Origin: Eledone cirrhosa
Taxonomy: Eukaryota
DNA: 64,000 bases
Assembly: GCA_964016885.1 (NCBI GenBank)
Contig: OZ024740.1
Span: forward strand, 68,572,001 to 68,636,000
Direction of reading: 5' to 3'
Below, piece by piece: positions 5,721 through 60,740 of the stretch. Below the pieces are notes generated by a model. That model saw only the letters and a program-made list of their open reading frames with translations, was not told the DNA's origin and searched no databases. Each line of letters begins with the position of its first letter. Position 1 is the stretch's first letter. The position numbers were made by a program, and so were the translations under genes.

Positions 5721-7475
5721 TTATATATTATATCCGTGACATCAATGGATTTATTACTTAGATAATAATGTGTATCTAAAGTTCTAATTCCTAGATATAC
5801 TGATCGGCTTTGATGAAATTTCTGCAGATATAAGAGATGAATCTTGAAGTCTTGGTAGGTGTAAATTAACACCTACTTCTATTAATCTTGGAAATATATC
5901 CATTAATGCAACAGATTGTTCTATGAATTAACAACAAAAAACGACTATTTCGTTTAATTCAATTGATTTCATAAATACACAAGTAGTTTGTTTTCCAGAC
6001 AGTCAAATATCGGATAGCTTGTGCATATTTTATTGTTAGCAAAGTGTGAAATTATTTCATTTTACAGTGGGTGGTGCTGCAGTTTATAAATGAATGAACT
6101 ATTTTACATATCAGCAGCACTATGAAATTGGCAGGTCAGACCTATCTAGCCTACATTTTTAAATATGTACCGACTCTGGCCATCCGTACTTTTCGCAGTT
6201 AGAATGTACCCGAAACGACATTTTCCGAAGTGTACGATATTTCTATGTCGATGGGACGTGATTTCAATACTTATAGGTCCGCTAATTTTAGCAGTTTGTT
6301 CATCCACATATTATCCCCCGTATTGCAGTGCTCAATATCTCCGGAGTTTAGTTCTTAATCGAAATAATTTTTTATGACTTGCTGTTAAAACGACACATGC
6401 GCATAAAATGTTCAGCTCTGACATTACAGATTAGTTGTTTGCGAAGGTAACTTACTCCGAGGAAAATGGATGAAAATCTTTATTGAATACACTGGAAATT
6501 TGAATTTAAAAAAATGAAAATAGGGCAAATATCCTAAAAGATTAGTAAATATAGCAGTTTAATGAATACCGTTTGATAAGTAGCCAGAGGCTGTTTCCTT
6601 TCTTGATGTCAACATTCTCTCTTTTTTCCCGGATCGATAATATATATACCATTCTAGCACTTGGCTTTCGGATTGGAGATTGCGGATTTAGGACTATGTT
6701 TAGAAGTCAAATCAAATGACATTAAATATGAATCTAACCGGAAATGACTTTCACTCAAACGAAAGAATAGAAATGAATGCAGTGAAGACGTTTTGAATCT
6801 GCGTCCTACTATTTAAACTCAATTAAAAATTATAAATATTTATTCAGCGTCTAAAAAAATTAATTAAATATATATTGATTTGATAAAAATGCCTCATAGA
6901 TAGGGGATTGGAGGATGGAAATATTATCGCTTGAATATATCTTGATTTAGTGACATTAACAATGTGAGGGAAATTACTCAAAATGAAAAATGAACATATT
7001 TGCGAATCTGACTCACTATGATGTTAGGGCAATAGTTTCCGTACTGGACCTTCTGAAACTATATTCAAGTCAATTAATGGAGAGTAATAAAATATTAATT
7101 ATCAATGAGACTGGGGTAGTTTAGATAGAAACCATGTCGTAGTAATAGTTTGGTTCACGGCTATAATCAGTTCAAATCTCACAGTGGGGCGGTTTATATT
7201 TTGTTGCATTGAAAGTTATATAACATTCACTGGCACATTGTACACGGGAATAATACCACTTATACCGGTATCTGGAAGATATGGGGTCAATTCCTCATAG
7301 CGGCCGTTCGAAACTTCTTTTTCGTCTGTTAAGTGTCTGCATCCTATTTTATATTCTACCTTTATAGCATTTCCTCGCTTGAGAACTTTCTTTATACTCT
7401 TTGTGCATATATATATATATTCTCAATGCTTCAAAAGATGAAATTTCGGCAGCGTATATATATATGTGTGTATTT

Positions 7476-7857
7476 GTAGAGGTTATATTTAATTTGTTGG
7501 GATACAACAAGCAAAATAGTTTTATAACTGATATAAAGCACTCACCAAATTATTGGAGTAAATATACAATATATTAACAAATAGAAACTATATTTATAAA
7601 ACCATATTTATTTCATTATACATATTTCAAGGGACACTAAGTCAAACTATGGTGCGCTTTCATCAAATAAAATATATCCAGGAGATTCCAAGCAGAATGG
7701 TTGCATTTTTTCAGAGTATGTCAATATTTATTTATAAAACTAACCTATATTATATTTTATCTGATGAAAGCACACCATAGTTTGCCTTGGTGGCCGTTGA
7801 AATATGTATAATGAAATAAATATGGTTTTATAAATATAATTTCTATTTGTTAATATA

Positions 7858-9668: not shown

Positions 9669-9784
<116 letters not shown>

Positions 9785-9839
9785 AAGTGGTAGCTTAGTA
9801 AAATCGAAGCTTCGGCTGAGGGCAAGCAAATCTACCTAC

Positions 9840-10418
9840 ATATATGCATACAGACGTACAGTAGTATGTATATTAATACATATATATATGTACGTATGGA
9901 TTTACCGAACATTTATTATAATGCTCGTTTTTTTTGTAAATAAACATTCCGAATTAAGCCGTACAGTGTTTAACAACCATCGTTGCCCTTTCGTTCAACA
10001 CTGACAAAGGAACAATGTACTAGTTTCAAGCTTATTAGCTATCGTCAGCACCGTATACCTTCCTGCCAGATGATTGAACCTCTGAAAGTATATACTTTCC
10101 TTATGCATATTAACGGCTAAGTAGCCGAATTTGCATATCGAGTGTGTTAATCGGCCGGGCGCACCGAAAACGATACATGGAAAAAATAAAACGAAATTTC
10201 ATTTCTCACTCTTAGTACGACTGTTACTTAATTATAAGTATGTATACATACATGCATATATGTATACATACGTACAGTAGTGTGTGTATACATACATACA
10301 CGCACACATATATGTATATATGTACGTATGAGTTTACCGAACATTTATTATAATGCTCGTTTTTTTTGTAAACAAACAGCCCGAATTATTAGCCGTACAG
10401 TGTTCGGCAACCATCGTT
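9840..10418 (-). mobile_element. HHR repeat family H3, about 1.4 head-to-tail copies of a ~420-nt monomer
   Basis: cgtacagtag..ccgaacatttattataatgctcg..aaccatcgttg occurs at 9855 and again at 10271; further copies at 12990-13680, 48955-49285 and 50795-51380. Confidence 0.85.
10012..10054 (-). ncRNA. Minimal type I hammerhead ribozyme (family H3)
   Basis: acggtg-CTGACGA-tagct-aata-agctt-GAAA-ctag-TA-cattgt; full core, palindromic stem III (CTAG), GUA cleavage triplet. Confidence 0.85.
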
Positions 10419-10680
10419 GTTCTTCTGGTTTTCAAAAGTAGAATTGAGATGGAGGATTTGTGGGTTTTCTCACATCTGTGAGAAAAACCACAAACTCTCC
10501 ATCTCAATTCTACTTTTGAAAAGCAGAAGAACTGCGAAACTGGTAAAGGAACCAATGAAATATATATATTTTTTTTAAAAGACACCAGTTACATTTTCGA
10601 TTTCATCCTTTTTCCTTATACTTTCCTGTGAGTAGGACACCTCGATTTTTTTTTCATTTTGTAAAAAAACCTCACTTTCT
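10419..10680. repeat. 114-bp fold-back palindrome (10419-10532) continuing into a decayed HHR repeat
   Basis: Arms pair around ctcaca-TC-tgtgag; the right arm continues ctt-TTGAAAA-gcag-aagaa-ctgc-GAAA-ctgg-TA-aag (10513-10548, two core substitutions). Confidence 0.8.
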
Positions 10681-10681
10681 A

Positions 10682-10790
<109 letters not shown>

Positions 10791-12952: not shown

Positions 12953-12989
<37 letters not shown>

Positions 12990-12990
<1 letters not shown>

Positions 12991-13680
12991 AGTATGTATA
13001 CGTGCATACATATATGTATACAGACGTACAGTAGTATGTATATATATACATACATGCACACATATATATATCTACGTATGGATTCAGCGAACATTTATTA
13101 TAATGCTCGGAGTGTTTGTAAACAAACATCCCGAATTAAGCCGTACTGTGTTTAGCAACCATCGTTGCTCATTTGTTCAACGCTGACAAAGGAACGCTGT
13201 ACTAGTTTCAAGATTATTAGCTATCGTCAGCAACGAATACCTTCCTGCCAGATTGTTGAACGTATATACGTACCATATGTATATTAACGGCTGAGTAGCC
13301 CAATTTGCATATCGAGTGGGTTAATCGGCCGGGTGCACCGAAAACGATAAACGGAAAAAATCAAACGAAATTTCATTTCCCACTCTTACCATGCATAAGG
13401 TAAGTATATACGTTCAACAATTTGGCAGGAAGGTATACGTTGCTGACGTTAGCTAATAAGCTTGAAATTAGTACAGCGTTCCTTTGTCAGTGTTGAACAA
13501 AGGAGCAACGATGGTTGCTAGACACTGCGGCTTAATACGGGATGTTTGTTTACAAACACACCGAGCATTATAATAAATGTTCGGTGAACCCATACGTACA
13601 TATATATATGTGTGCATGTATGTGTATATATACATACTACTGTACGTCTGTATACCTATATGTATGTACGTGTACATACT
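12990..13680. mobile_element. Back-to-back inverted pair of family H3
   Basis: 12990-13390 (minus sense) and 13405-13680 (plus sense) are mutually reverse-complementary over ~280 bp; (TA)n on both flanks. Confidence 0.9.
13195..13235 (-). ncRNA. Minimal type I hammerhead ribozyme (family H3)
   Basis: cgttg-CTGACGA-tagctaataatctt-GAAA-ctag-TA-cagcg. The opposite copy at 13437-13479 (+) has A9>T. Confidence 0.75.
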
Positions 13681-13699
13681 TATATATATATATAATATT

Positions 13700-17686: not shown

Positions 17687-18523
17687 TTAACTGTATACTT
17701 TGTGAAAAGTCCTATGGAATTTATGCAGGCAGATAGAAAACAAATCTGTACGTTTATTTATTATAGAATCTAGGTTAGAGATAATGGTACATTTTTCATT
17801 TAGGCAGAGATTACAGATTTTAGATAGAGAGCTGTTCAAGTATGAGGATGCAGAAGAAACCTTCTTCCAAAAGATGGTATGTTTAATGTTTTTGTCTTTT
17901 AAGGACCATATGAGTTCTGAGAGAGCAGTGTTGGTTCTTTTAAGTTTGTATTTGAAAGATGAATGATGATTATAGAGACGAGCTTTAAAAGAGGTGGAAG
18001 TGGAGCCAAAATAGGTGAAGGAATTGGTGCTAGTTATAATTTTACATTCATAAATTAAGTTTTTATCGAGACAATGGTTGTTGAGAGGACATTTATTTTT
18101 AATGCGGCAGTTGCAATTAGAGAGATTATTAATGAGTAACCTAGTGTTATCTATAGAAGGAATTGGATTGGAGAAGTTGTTTGCGATAGGAATAATAGGA
18201 ACAATAGTTTCTTGATTTAGAGTTGGATTATGAACATTTAGCGAAGTTGTGTTTGACGTTGTATTTGGGTTTACAGAAGTTAGCCTAGGGTTTACAATGA
18301 CGTCGGGAGTACTATTACTGTTATTATGAAATTCAATGTTGGAAGGAAGAGATTTAGTATTTAGTATTTTATTGTTGTGTTTAGAGATGATGTTGGAAAT
18401 ATTGGAGGATCTAGCATAAGAAAATTTGATGGTGTGTTTGTTAAATATTTTACTATAGATATGTGAGGGAGGGAAGCATTTATTTAAGGCACTAAAAAAT
18501 AATTTAGGAATATTGTTATTAAT
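17687..18523 (-). CDS. Start-less open frame: PLE linker plus GIY-YIG endonuclease domain (~279 codons)
   Basis: Manual translation without stops: [32 protein letters not shown]...[75 protein letters not shown]. It is absent from the ORF track because it lacks a start codon. Confidence 0.88.
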
Positions 18524-44570: not shown

Positions 44571-45157
44571 GGGAGGATAGTACTAATAAGTTTCTTATTT
44601 AGGCACAAGATAATATACTAGGAGCTGGAAGATGTTAAAGTCGATTAAATTAACTGTAATACTTGGATATTACTTTATTTTATTGACCTCCGGAACACAT
44701 CGTTTACGTCACGTTTTCAAAACTACAATAGGAACAATATTTGTACGGCAAGTTATGACAACAGAGAGCAATTATATAAACACTAAGCAGTGTTCATAAT
44801 TTTACTCATACTTGAACAAATAGCCCTGCTTGGTATTGTACATCGTAAACAACGTACTTATTACTAATAATATAAAACAAAACATATGCTACACTAGCAG
44901 CCAATATTATAACACAATGCATGAAGTATATTATTTAAACCATCCCCACTAATGAGCAACACTCATATTCTTACATAATAGACATCCAAAACTAATATAT
45001 TCCACACAGCGCCTCTGTGCTTAGTAATCTAAAGCAACTCCTAACGAATATAACCTACTGTGCATAATCCTGCCCCAGATTATATAACACATAAAACAAC
45101 CTACATCGAATACGAATATTATCATGAACCAAAGTTATACTGAAAGCTCACATTAAA

Positions 45158-45423
45158 CATATATTACAAAACAAATAGACGAAACTCTAAAATAACATAT
45201 ATAAAGGATATTAGATATATTTATCATGTTGTAGAATCTTACCAACTGTACACGAAGGTTTAAATTATGTTAAGAAATAAAAAAAAACTACATATATTAC
45301 AAAACAAATAGACGAAACTCTAAAATAACATATATAAAGAATATTAGATATATTTATCAGGTTGTAGAATCTTACCAACTGTACACGAAGGTTTAAATTA
45401 TGTTAAGAAATAAAAAAAAACTA
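45158..45423. repeat. ~132-bp near-perfect tandem duplication
   Basis: catatattacaaaacaaatagacgaaac..gaaataaaaaaaaact occurs twice. Confidence 0.93.
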
Positions 45424-45570
45424 CTCTTATAATTATACATTCGAACAGACACTTTTGTAGATATTTCGGAAACACCCGGCTATATACCCACCGACGGAAC
45501 TAATGTTTATGTAATGATGAAGTGCAAATATGCATTAATTTATTGGGAACATGATAAAAATTGCTACAAA

Positions 45571-48738: not shown

Positions 48739-48887
48739 TGCAGCATAGAGTTACGGCCTTTTACGCTCTGAGTTCAAATCCCACCGAGGTTAACTTTGGC
48801 TTTCATCCTTACGGGGTAGATAAAATAAAATAGAAATAATGCACTGGGATAAAAGCTGGCCTTGTGCCAAAAGTAGAAACAATTATT
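48739..48887 (+). mobile_element. tRNA-derived SINE, 5'-truncated
   Basis: B box gagttcaaatcc and family tail gtagaaacaattatt. Confidence 0.88.
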
Positions 48888-48954
48888 AATGTTAGAAATA
48901 ACCCATTCGTACATATGTGTGTGTGTGCATGTATATATGCATATATATGTGTGT

Positions 48955-49285
48955 ACGTATACATACTTACATTTATGTATCAACACTGCTAGAGCGAGAC
49001 ATTCTAATTTCATTTCTAATTTTCGGCATGACCAGCCGTAACTCGATCGATATGCAAATGAACCTAAACACTCGGTATATACTTCGAAAAGACTGTATAT
49101 TTTGATCCGTTCAACAGATTGGCAGAGAGGTAAACAGTCCTGACGAAGTGTAATGACCCAGAAACATGTTGATTGTTTCTCGGTGACACTTTTGAACTAA
49201 CGGATGACGATTGGTCATCAAGGCAGAGCACAGCTTTTCTGGGCTGTTTGCTTGCAAACGAATTGAATATTATTATTAAGGTTCT
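48955..49285 (+). mobile_element. Old diverged member of family H3 with HHR at 49132-49178
   Basis: Colinear motifs (gatatgcaaat, tggcagagaggta, tgtttgcttgcaaac) and aaacagtc-CTGACGA-..-GAAA-catg-TT-gattgttt. Confidence 0.7.
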
Positions 49286-49290
49286 ATATA

Positions 49291-50777: not shown

Positions 50778-50794
<17 letters not shown>

Positions 50795-50807
<13 letters not shown>

Positions 50808-51190
50808 ACGTACATACATATATGTGTACAGACGCACAGTAGTATGTATATATATATATACATACATGCACACATATATATATGTACGTATGGGTTTACC
50901 GAACATTTATTATAACGTTCGGTTTGTTTGTAAACAAACAGCCCGAAATACGCCGTACAGTGCTCGGCAACCATCGTCGCCCTTTTGTTCAACACTGACA
51001 TATGCAAATTAGGCTTCCTCAGCCGTTAATATGCATGAGAAAAGATAAGATTTAAACTAGTACATCGTTTAATGTGACAGTGTTGAACAAAAGGGCGACG
51101 ATGGTTGCCGAGCACTGTACGGGGTAATTCGGGATGTTTGTTTACAAACAAACCGAACATTATAAAAATGTTCGGTAAACCCATACGTAC

Positions 51191-51233
<43 letters not shown>

Positions 51234-51237
51234 CATG

Positions 51238-51275
<38 letters not shown>

Positions 51276-51380
51276 CTACTGTACGTCTGTACACATATAT
51301 GTATGTACGTATACATACATATATTTTGGTATCAGCCGTACTAAGAGTGAGAAATGAAATTTCGTTTCATCCTTTTCCAT
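50795..51380. mobile_element. Back-to-back inverted pair of family H3 (HHR deleted or decayed)
   Basis: ~50800-51000 is inverted at ~51076-51320; the right arm runs through the monomer end-start junction (gtactaagagtgagaaatgaaatttcg). Confidence 0.87.
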
Positions 51381-51396
51381 TTATATATATATATAT

Positions 51397-51470: not shown

Positions 51471-51805
51471 TATTAACAAAAGGAAACTATATTTATAAAA
51501 CCATATTTATTTCATTATACATATTTCAAAGGCCACCAAGGCAGATTATGGTGTGCTTTCATCAGATAAAATATAATATAGATTAGTTTTATAAAACTAA
51601 TCTATATTATATTTTATCTGATGAAAGCACACCATAATCTGCCTTGGTGGCAATTGAAATATGTTTAATGAAATAAATATGGTTTTATTAATATAGTTTC
51701 CATTTGTTAATATATTGTATATTTACTCAAATAATTTGTTGAGTGCTTTATATCAGTTATAAAAATATTTTGCTTGTTGTATCGCAATAAATTAAATATA
51801 ACCTC

Positions 51806-57339: not shown

Positions 57340-58690
57340 AACAAATTATCGTTATAGGTAATCCAGTTAGAGGTTGTGAGTACTCTGTATTGTGGATAGT
57401 TTTAACTTACGGCGTTGTTTGACTCAACAAAATGATTCCTTATTTAGATGGCGAGTTCCCGGAAATTCCTCTGCAGGTTAATCTTGGAGTAATAATAGTG
57501 AAAGAGTGAAGAATAACATGGTCAACAGTACAGACATGGTTTTATTTACAGTATTAACAATTGTTTCATTGATTAGGATGTCTAAAGATTGATAATCACT
57601 TGAAGTTGTGTCACTCAATCATAAATACAATGTATGCCTAATCAAATCATCGGAATAACTGACAAAATTACACTCGATATCTGTCTTTATATTACGGAGA
57701 TTTCTAATAATAACATAATGATAAAGAAATAAAAATAAAAATAAAAAAAAAATAATAAATAATAAAGAAGTTAGAATGAAGATGATAAAAAATAAGGTAA
57801 CAAAACTATACGTGAAAAAATATATGAACATCATATGATTGTTGAAAATAGTGGTGGTGGTAGTTAAAGTTATAGTGGTGTGTAAGTATAAAGATGTGAT
57901 GAGGGTAGGAATATTATTAATATGAAAATAAATATTAAATATATACGTATATGTATTGGTTAAATCACAGATGGTTAGAGTAGGAAGAAAGATAAATTAA
58001 TGAATTAGAAGTTATGTTAGAGGTTAAGAGATATAGGATAGGAGATTTATGATGTTGATTTAGTGATTAGCTCGTTTGTTGTCAGTTAATAATAGTGAGT
58101 TTGTATGTAGTTATTATAATAGACCCTGGATGGATCAGCTTGTACTATGGCGTTATTGGATCGAATCATGTTGGTTTGAAATTTGCGAATTTAGTAGCTG
58201 CTTTGGGCCTACAGAGAATTGATCGTTCTATTTTGCTGTTAAGCAGCATTTTGTCATACTTTAAAATATGGAACAGCTCCATATTGCAAAGTCCCAGTGA
58301 GACATTCTATTTCTGTAGTTGTTTGCTCCCGATAATTTCGACCAGCTAATCCTGTATTCTTGGTTTGTATCCTTAAGTTGCCAGATTATATTGGCCAGCG
58401 TGTTTGTGTTCACTAGTCTACGGTTCATCAAAGAATATATGTGGACATACCATTTTTTTTTTACTCCCCAGCCGTAGAAGCTATGTAGTTCCATGCTAAG
58501 TTGCCCGAATTTATAGTACACAGATATACTATATTTGATTCCAGGCATCTATTTTGTAGTGGGCACTTATCCGGTAAGTGGCAGTTACATAGGGAGGCCT
58601 ACCTGTGTGCAGGTTCTCCGTTGCGGTTTTGTATGTTGTAATGTATGGGTTGAGATACTAATAATATGTTATGTATGGGTTGAGATACTA
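57340..58690 (-). mobile_element. Inverted 3' portion of a PLE (decayed GIY-YIG, 3' UTR and HHR)
   Basis: NTLANIIWQLKDTNQEYRISW; ~58341-58660 is the inverted copy of ~60420-60735. Confidence 0.87.
57549..57661 (-). ncRNA. Variant-core hammerhead motif (CCGATGA) with long stem II at the PLE 3' end
   Basis: cagttatt-CCGATGA-tttgattagg...cctaatcaat-GAAA-caattg-TT-aatactg; 9-bp stem II base and palindromic CAATTG. Confidence 0.68.
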
Positions 58691-60740
58691 ATAATAACAA
58701 TGAGGAATTTACTAGTGAAAAATACGGGTTCAAATCCTACAAAAATCCACCGAATAACCCTCAACTCGATGCCTTTGAACTCGACCTCGTGAACATGATA
58801 AACAGAACCAAATTCAAAAATCGGACAGGGTACAACTGCAAAACGACAACAATGCACTACTAAAATATCTACGTAACACCAACGGTATTATAGTAAAAGC
58901 GGACAAAACATCAAACGTATAAACCATGAACCTTAATACAAACAATAACTTTAAACGCTGTGAATTACACAAACATTACAGGAAAACTATGGCATCTACA
59001 CTCACTAGCATTAATAAGGATGGACTTAATATAGTAAACAAAACTGAAAATATCTGACAGAACCGAGCCTCTGACCTCTTGTAAACCCACATTTAATCTA
59101 AAATATCATAAAAATAACTTCGAAACTGACCCTACTATTAGATTAATATGCCCATCGAAATCGGATATAGGTACAATTAGCAAGTATATACTAGATAGAA
59201 TATTAGCACAAATTAAAGACAAACTAATAATTAATCTATGGCGTAACACTAACGAAGCAATAGATTGGTTTCGCAAAATTGACAATAAGGAAACATCCGA
59301 CTTTATACAGTTTCACATCAATGACTACTACTCCTCCATTTCCCCAGTCACTCTAAATAAGGCACTAACATTTGCACAGAAAAACTCGGACCTATCCTCT
59401 GATGAAATTAGAATAATACTATCTGCTAGGAGAACTATCATTAGGTTCGATAATAGTTACTGGGAATTAATAAAAATCAGAATTGCTTCGATATCACTAT
59501 GGGATCTAAGGGCTCAGCTCAAGTAACAGAGATAGTTGGAATATATATAGCGCATAACTTACCTAGGGAATTTAATAACCCCCAAGGAGGAATTTATAGA
59601 GACGATACACTCCTTTTAGCTAAAAACTTAAATAATCAAAACTTGGAAAGATTACGTAAAAACATTACAATCTTCTTCAATAAACTAGGCCTATGCATCA
59701 CTTTCGAACTTAATTCTAAAAAAGCTAACTTCTTACATGTAACACTCAATCTTAACGCAGCAAAATAGAGCCCTTCCATAAAAATAACGAAAATCTAGCA
59801 TATATTAGTTATAACTCAAACCAGCCTAGCTCCATAATTAAGTCCATAGAACATTGTGTATCCCTCAGAATTTCGCGCTTATCTTCTAACCTAGATATGT
59901 TTAATTAACACGCAAACTACTATAACATAGCTTTACTTAAGGCAGGCCACAAGTAGAGGCTGAAATACATACCAGATACAGACAACAACACTACCCACAC
60001 CTATAGAAATAGCAAATATAGGACTAACCATGGAAATAGACAACGACCACCAGAAATAACTGAACGAAATACGAATATAAGGATCCCTAGGAACTATAGA
60101 AAATCCAGAGATAGGAAATACTTATGGTTCAATCCAATATTCAACTCCTTTATAAAAACAAAATTACCTTCTACATTCTTTAAATTAATTGACAATCACT
60201 TTCCTAAACTTCACAAATACCATAAGATCTTTAACAGAAAAACTATCAAACTGTCTTACTCTACTGCAGCCAACATAGAATCACACATACATAAAATTAA
60301 CTATAGAAGAATCTCTAATGAAAATAACCTACAAACACCAACTACAAAACACAAACTCATAACAACATCACAACCACATAAAAGTCAGAACGCATCACAA
60401 CAAAACATCCAGAAACACAAATCTCAACCAGTACATAACAACATACAAAACCGCAACGGAGAACCTGCACACGGGAAGGCGTCCAAATGTAACTGCCACT
60501 TACCGGATAAGTGCTCACTATAAAATAGATGCTTGGAATCAAATATAGTGTATCTGTGTACTATAAATTCTGGCAACTCAGCATGGCACTACATAGGTTC
60601 TACAGGTGGGGAGTTTAAAAAAATATGGTACTTCCACAGACTTTCTATGAATAACCATACACTAGTGAACACAACAACGCTGACCAATGCAATATGGCAG
60701 CTTAAGGATACAAACCAAGAATACTGTACGAGCTGAAGAT
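58690..60740 (+). pseudogene. Penelope-like RT plus GIY-YIG pseudogene
   Basis: YGFKS..AFELDL, IVKADKTSN, RLICPSKSDIGTISK, LWRNT..IDWF, FIQFHINDYYSSI, FDITMGS..AQVTEIVG, GIYRDD, NFLHVTLNL, WFNP, HFP..HKIFNRKTIKLSYS, NIVY..YIGST; several stops and frameshifts. Confidence 0.93.

Follow-up and report, generated by a model that had tools for sequence, protein, structure and literature searches.

What kind of element is the H3 copy at positions 9833-10419 (minus strand) of the 64,000-nt Eledone cirrhosa sequence analysed here (the window), and from what sort of RNA was it copied? The initial annotation described H3 as a circularly permuted monomer of ~420 nt with one hammerhead ribozyme. A single type I hammerhead and a unit of ~430 nt are indeed what we find, but the family is not freely permuted: its 3' ends are fixed, with 96 of 127 falling at two sites. 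H3 is a real and abundant family, likely a new member of the non-LTR retrozymes that is mobilised by a Penelope-like element (PLE). Our overall account, which we hold with modest confidence, is that H3 is a non-LTR retrozyme, likely a non-autonomous PLE, whose template was a probably circular RNA. As an element the family is of an ordinary kind; its significance is that it displays the two-start signature of PLEs on a non-coding unit without a 5' stop.

The H3 unit is ~430 nt long and non-coding, and tandem copies outside the focal locus have a period of 430-432 nt. As reference we used one natural 432-nt unit of the tandem locus L024, treated as wrap-around, in which r1 is the first base after the predicted ribozyme cut. 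A 27-nt pattern (r18-r44) has 2,010 exact matches in the 3.0-Gb, AT- and microsatellite-rich source genome and a control pattern has none, while a search with 331 nt of H3 returned 2,884 candidates, the best 40 of which scored 93-95% identity. Thirty loci from the 331-nt search, which is biased to full-length matches, served for a first look only. The positional sample consists of the first 100 of the 2,010 27-mer matches by position, on contig C1; after merging of overlaps it comprises 79 loci with 81 H3 insertions, excludes the best-match insertions at 45.73 and 56.91 Mb of C1, and is biased in that every sampled insertion must contain r18-r44. L065 and L066 appear to be duplicates of a single insertion, and L061 is a nest; variant counts omit L061 and L066, and end counts include both. 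Most loci hold 1-1.6 units, an unbroken run exceeds 432 nt in 49 of the 81 insertions and 864 nt in six, and the longest run is 2,472 nt. Tandem H3 with at least two consecutive hammerheads is found at a minority of loci (L024, L017, L055, L119 and L151). A longer variant with a period of ~500-510 nt, an expanded TA tract and intact hammerheads is arranged in tandem at L151 (7950-9201).

In size and composition H3 resembles known retrozymes (150-450 nt, GC below 50%, no LTR, PBS or PPT): it measures 430-432 nt, and its units have no reverse transcriptase (RT) or endonuclease match. Folding of the monomer, which had been proposed as a check, gave z scores of -8.0 for the linear and -9.1 for the circular unit, and -5.5 when the TA tract was removed, so that the unit RNA is predicted to be highly self-paired, as in retrozymes. 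The internal TA/CA microsatellite-like segment noted by the initial annotation is present at about r126-r225 and is predicted to form a long hairpin.

The type I hammerhead of the focal copy lies at 10012-10054 on the minus strand, with its core at 10048-10018, a GUA triplet at 10020-10018 and a predicted cut between 10018 and 10017, after the GUA. It consists of a helix I of 6 bp, a CUGACGA core, a helix II of 4 bp with U-U at its base and an AAUA loop, GAAA, and a helix III formed by the palindrome ACUAGU. Helix III thus amounts to one pair plus a palindromic tetraloop, a form reported to need dimers in the accessible text of PMC7229834 and PMC4209133, and one whose weakness is associated with poor monomer cleavage (PMC7229834). 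Core, helices and palindrome are intact at 72 of 125 H3 sites, the focal one included, and the cleavage triplet is GUA at 72 of the 125 and GUU at 51. In an 8-sequence alignment of H3 with an older sister family, 6 of 13 hammerhead pairs, palindrome included, are changed on both sides, a count that should be read with the caveat that two related families represent a handful of events and that the structure was written from the same sequences. Retention of pairing by compensatory change suggests that the hammerhead was under selection. At gathering score Rfam detects no hammerhead anywhere in the 64-kb window, and the 80 matches at E ≤ 10 within 9700-10700 were all below gathering, mostly hairpin miRNA models, with no hammerhead among them. 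Folding energy gives no support either, since local z scores of the region were between -1.4 and +0.4 in all four copies folded; the hammerhead is predicted from its motif, its helices and their covariation. Hammerhead motifs with other 6-nt helix III palindromes (AGTACT, ACCGGT) are present in coding PLE families (L144 at 3636 on the minus strand, L158 and L132), and the corresponding palindromes are ACTAGT in H3 and ACATGT in the sister family. Such family-specific palindromes could make dimer cleavage family-specific.

The sister family is represented in the window at 48882-49290 (plus strand) by a copy with a 409-nt unit that another repeat interrupts; the hammerhead of this copy, at 49140, is compensated. 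The sister family has 1,892 candidates in the genome, and many of the 25 loci inspected show ends at the two corresponding sites. The initial annotation had placed a diverged H3 junction at 48955-49010. A diverged form of the motif is present at ~48990-49010, but it belongs to the 409-nt unit of this sister family.

Mapping of insertion ends on the wrap-around unit, a check suggested with the initial annotation, gave evenly spread 5' ends and 3' ends concentrated at two sites. Allowing for an uncertainty of several bases in ends called beside (TA)n, 49 of the 127 outer 3' ends lie at site A (r211-r226, ~r218) and 47 at site B (r269-r279, ~r277), ~59 nt apart; 17 of the remainder fall in the TA tract (r126-r210) and 14 elsewhere. 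The 5' ends, by comparison, show no hotspot: their largest 12-nt cluster is 10, against a uniform mean of 10.6, and 3 of 156 are within 5 nt of the cut site where 3.6 are expected. The cut site is crossed by 136 of 146 runs (counted as passes over r18). Copies longer than the unit, read-through of the cut site and the lack of a 5' hotspot all argue for a circular or multimeric template, as the initial annotation had proposed. Linear cleaved monomers were also considered as templates and rejected, since the end peak expected at the cut site is absent; no 3' end (127 outer and 29 inner) lies within 5 nt of it.

The two sites are used as a pair. In 46 of the 81 insertions the RNA 3' ends point outward on both sides, giving a head-to-head arrangement, and among the 27 of these with site A or B at both ends, 25 combine A with B, one has A twice and one has B twice (p=2.8e-6); the other 19 of the 46 have at least one end outside A and B. 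A TA run is found within 20 nt of 41 of the 47 ends at B and 35 of the 49 at A (76 of 96 in all), compared with 438 of 3,950 random 20-mers (11%) and 7 of 35 outer 5' ends. H3 thus has the inverted, 5'-truncated arm with a tail at one end only and the microsatellite or AT-rich target of Penelope-type insertions. We also considered that one arm might be a DNA copy of the other and rejected this, because in 11 of 19 simple cases the A arm exceeds the length of the B arm without its tail, and in 11 it equals or exceeds the whole B arm. Two further inverted insertions lie in the window. The head-to-head insertion at 12979-13692, which is outside the sample of 81 and does not figure in the initial annotation of this finding, is an exception to the A+B rule in having site A at both outer ends, while the one at 50791-51384 contains internal jumps and ends at site A on the left and at site B, beside (TA)n, on the right. 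It was within the latter, at 51300-51370, that an independent end-to-start junction had been reported. The motif does occur there in opposite orientation (~51330-51360), but as part of the terminal tail of the inverted insertion (51258-51384), which ends at site B.

The suggestion that the internal TA tract helps to prime synthesis at genomic (TA)n is not supported by these data, since r126-r210 accounts for only 17 of the 127 outer 3' ends and the same two-site pattern is seen in a coding PLE that has no such tract at its ends. Site A does sit at the 3' edge of the tract with a match of ~5 nt to (TA)n, which leaves room for a small priming role. A similar U-rich motif (TTTCG..TTTCAT..TTTTTC..TTTAT) precedes site B of H3 (r254-r279) and the +102 end of a coding Neptune element (L143, ~6390-6420); the motif is short and of low complexity, so the resemblance is suggestive only.

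The focal copy is an atypical mosaic of two H3 subfamilies set between the ends of two other repeats, a setting that the initial annotation had overlooked. It comprises ~1.4 units, from r33 through the cut site to ~r201, and aligns to 601 nt of the reference. The period is 416 nt when measured from the start given in the initial annotation (9840 to 10256) and 432-434 nt in the unique part, and the two passes carry different subfamily alleles at four sites (r46, r47, r71 and r122). Its TA/CA-rich tract occupies 10232-10328 (minus strand, bounds approximate), with site A (r218 = 10232) at the 3' edge, and the tail between site A and site B (r277 = 10173) occupies 10173-10231 (minus strand); the copy reads through this tail. 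The motif that had been taken for the monomer end is an interior stretch (~r230-r255, 10196-10221) between the real 3' sites, and ~35 nt of the unit separate it from the supposed start into which it was said to run directly.

On its 3' side the focal copy adjoins a terminal piece of ~57 nt (9782-9840, minus strand) of another repeat family that ends in (TA)n; the piece has 40 matches and comes from the (TA)n-facing end. The family ends at (TA)n in all seven loci inspected (L187-L193), where no canonical hammerhead was found near its end, and at L190 it stands head-to-head with a pLTR of the coding Neptune-type family represented by L142 and L143 (the L142 family). On its 5' side the focal copy is joined, at a 3-nt microhomology, to a head-to-head foldback of an L142-family pLTR (10419-10680) that ends at (TA)n. 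The composite is bounded by (TA)n tracts at 9718-9781 and 10682-10750, and the 3' ends of its elements point outward. Such a structure likely arose by template jumps among the RNA of another repeat, two H3 variants and a Neptune pLTR, and if these took place in one event, the L142 family would be a candidate helper for H3. Successive insertions into one TA tract accompanied by deletion explain the composite too. Among 35 outer H3 5' flanks, a PLE end is convincingly matched at the junction in one and an L142-family end in none, so the L142 family is a candidate helper only.

If H3 is copied from a circular or multimeric RNA, do the units of a single insertion come from one molecule? Rare variants (those in at most three insertions) are shared with the partner unit in 58 of 360 cases within a run and in 56 of 343 between inverted arms (16% each), compared with 588 of 73,040 (0.8%) between different insertions. 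This excess suggests that units and arms usually derive from one molecule or one source. The shared variants stem from 8 of the 23 runs compared and 10 of the 38 pairs of arms, and without the five longest arrays the rates are 15% within runs and 19% between arms. Subfamily alleles give the same picture: they match in all 16 runs and in 31 of 33 arm pairs, but differ in 1,793 of 3,077 pairs drawn from different insertions. Gene conversion or a uniform source locus could also give rise to shared rare variants. Five of eight long arrays examined (L119, L017, L104, L109 and L024) carry variants in only some units, partly with a 2- or 3-unit periodicity in L119 and L017, and such patterns fit multimer templates or later DNA duplication better than a single monomer circle.

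Taken together, we favour a circular H3 template over other readings of these sequences. Read-through transcripts of tandem copies would be cut by paired hammerheads acting through the palindromic helix III, and the resulting monomers would be ligated into a circle. This circle would then be bound by a borrowed, probably dimeric PLE protein, which would nick both strands of a genomic (TA)n tract and start one cDNA at each of the sites A and B. Both cDNAs would run round the template and stop at random, and their meeting in the middle would give single, more-than-unit and inverted copies. The most specific form of this proposal, in which a dimer of a Penelope protein holds a single endless circular RNA and the two halves of the dimer start at the two fixed sites, one per nicked (TA)n strand, and roll round the template, is a tentative reading to which we give somewhat less than an even chance.

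The same two-site PLE mechanism might instead operate on an uncleaved linear multimer transcribed across tandem loci, with the hammerhead cutting rarely or acting at another step, and we regard this as a strong rival, though less probable. The poor cleavage expected of monomers with a single-pair helix III would fit such a template, as would the mixed variant patterns of the long arrays and the span of two subfamilies in the focal copy. Moreover, the one PLE examined in vitro used mainly unprocessed RNA as its substrate and did not require cleavage (PMC11167929, as far as its accessible text describes). A multimeric RNA of this kind requires long linear sources, however, and these appear to be few given the prevalence of 1-1.6-unit loci and the six of 81 insertions that exceed two units. 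Nor do the 35 outer 5' flanks carry a common source flank: they contain four matching pairs, none of which abuts H3 in both members at the same place, and all-against-all flank matches are dominated, among the matches listed, by other common repeats. The stop rate is also roughly flat across unit boundaries (0.23-0.54 per 100 nt), and the compensatory changes in the ribozyme argue that its pairing matters.

Fixed 3' ends, a tail and inverted arms are hallmarks of a pLTR (PMC8557442 and PMC3846280, in their accessible portions), which raises the question of whether H3 is the pLTR plus short tandem 3' region of an unsampled coding PLE, with its copies representing truncated ends. The initial annotation had itself named a fixed-end pLTR of a longer coding element as the finding that would overturn its proposal; the ends are fixed as in a pLTR, but no in-line coding element was found. 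In a tblastn search with nine PLE proteins, which covered 120 loci and the window, no PLE ORF lay in line with H3 on its 5' side, nor was one found in line with the units at the 25 sister-family loci. H3 thus lacks, in the sampled loci, the RT plus GIY-YIG ORF between pLTRs that defines an autonomous PLE, and no parent PLE with sequence matching H3 was found. The runs themselves point the same way, in that 76 of the 88 reaching r295 going 5' continue past r260, re-entering the unit instead of an ORF, and the remainder stop in unrelated sequence. A genome search with the GIY-YIG profile (PF01541) returned 10,597 candidates, of which 150 were scored and 40 loci inspected, a coverage that leaves space for a hidden parent. 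H3 lies near two of the 40 PLE loci, and there other repeats intervene or H3 is beyond the ORF end. At one locus (L104, 3562-4600) H3 breaks off at r397 and continues, on the same strand, partway through the coding region of a PLE RT, which may reflect a template switch; the junction is single and falls mid-ORF. We consider a coding parent unlikely. L151, which had seemed a case of H3 behind a PLE ORF, was rejected because its array is separate, ~2.5 kb away across other repeats, and head-to-head H3/PLE neighbours were seen at L005 and L019.

The coding PLEs of this genome provide a useful comparison for the ends of H3. RT and GIY-YIG domains were found together in four of five frames scanned, and L142, a 938-aa stop-to-stop frame that is near full length but not intact, has the CX4CxxC linker of the Neptune/Nematis type (assigned from the accessible text of PMC8557442). 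Its pLTR has 10,895 exact genome matches, and the ends of the first 30 were mapped: 17 of the 3' ends are at ~+170 and 10 at ~+102, beside (TA)n, so that 27 of 30 use two sites 68 nt apart, with 3 elsewhere. Head-to-head pairs have one of each end in five of seven cases and the same end twice in none. H3 shares these paired starts with the coding family and differs at the other end, since 19 of 30 L142-family 5' ends cluster within 12 nt, ~30 nt below a TATA-like box, while H3 has no sharp 5' stop. The stop in the coding family may mark the point at which RT reaches the 5' end of a linear mRNA and runs off. Members of this family (window 10419-10680; L142, L143 and L194-L223) carry a hammerhead-like motif with the non-canonical core CAGAAGA, and their 5' ends are strong-stop-like.

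The same end pattern in a coding PLE, together with the 96 of 127 ends at two points, the A+B coupling and the prevalence of short dispersed insertions with inverted arms, largely refutes the very improbable view that H3 is a freely permuted circle, with priming at any (TA)n to which its TA tract can anneal, or else a minisatellite that has multiplied through DNA duplication, despite the 17 of 127 ends in the tract, the position of site A at its border and the signs of block duplication in some long arrays.

Several parts of our preferred reading, a PLE-mobilised circle, are already in print as observation or proposal in the accessible portions of the sources cited here: the one-end tail of inverted PLE insertions, two internal starts, and the mobilisation of retrozymes by PLEs from circles. 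Mobilisation from circular RNA rests there on co-occurrence, shared hammerheads and pLTR similarity, and its mechanism is called open (Cervera and de la Pena 2020, PMC7229834; Li et al., bioRxiv 10.64898/2026.07.22.740005); according to the part of a 2020 review available to us, metazoan retrozymes have no motif that points to a helper (PMC7761336). As described in accessible portions of the same two retrozyme sources, metazoan non-LTR retrozymes resemble H3 in having a non-coding, 150-450-nt unit of low GC with one type I hammerhead, in occurring as monomers to multimers, in their highly self-paired predicted fold and in their coexistence with PLEs. The helix III of H3 is like that of axolotl HHR_Amex1, and its helix II has the basal U-U also seen in HHR_Amex2 (PMC7229834). 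It differs from the metazoan retrozymes as described there in occurring mostly as dispersed 1-1.6-unit and inverted insertions at (TA)n and not as long arrays, and in its two mapped, fixed 3' ends.

Endonuclease-bearing (EN+) PLEs have a pLTR, an inverted 5'-truncated copy and an optional tail, and those of the Neptune type share with H3 the head-to-head arms, the tail at one end only, the (TA)n targets and a hammerhead ~100-280 nt before the 3' ends (PMC8557442 and PMC3846280, accessible portions). H3 differs from them in having no ORF and a tail of ~59 nt as opposed to 30-40. The closest biochemical parallel in the accessible text of Frangieh et al. 2024 (PMC11167929) is the PAc Poseidon element of Anolis, for which two internal RT starts flanking a tail, cutting and extension of both strands, AT-rich targets and a predicted dimer were reported. 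Unlike H3, PAc codes for its own protein, shows no strand difference in start site in vitro where H3 pairs one site with each end, and starts in an AC-rich stem loop where the H3 sites follow U-rich stretches. Putative non-autonomous elements of Chlamys such as MRC1, like H3, derive from PLEs, are non-coding, have pLTRs and insert as several copies arranged head-to-tail, but, in the portions of PMC8557442 available, their 3' ends generally resemble an autonomous family and they mostly lack hammerheads, while H3 has no matching parent. We found no description of a cephalopod retrozyme or of a retrozyme end map in the literature accessible to us, from which most subscription papers were absent, and the H3 family may already be catalogued in Repbase or Dfam.

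Because H3 supplies exact start sites and a candidate helper family, it makes the PLE proposal testable in the existing in vitro PLE assay. If one dimer-held circle is indeed the template, H3 would document, directly in genomic DNA, the way in which an animal retrozyme moves, and its contrast with the coding Neptune family would tie retrozymes to the PLE enzyme and show circles to be real transposition templates.

Other repeats in the window deserve mention. Decayed PLE-like coding fragments with 30-42% identity to the L145 frame lie at 17705-18511 and 58455-60724, and a hammerhead-like motif is found at 60733, beside the second of these. A distinct hammerhead-like family (CTGATGA ... GAAATATGTA) occurs at 7761, 51565 and 51618, and forms a head-to-head pair at ~51480-51750 that adjoins an H3 insertion. 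Finally, a 133-nt tandem pair that is 98% identical and unrelated to H3 is present at 45157-45424.
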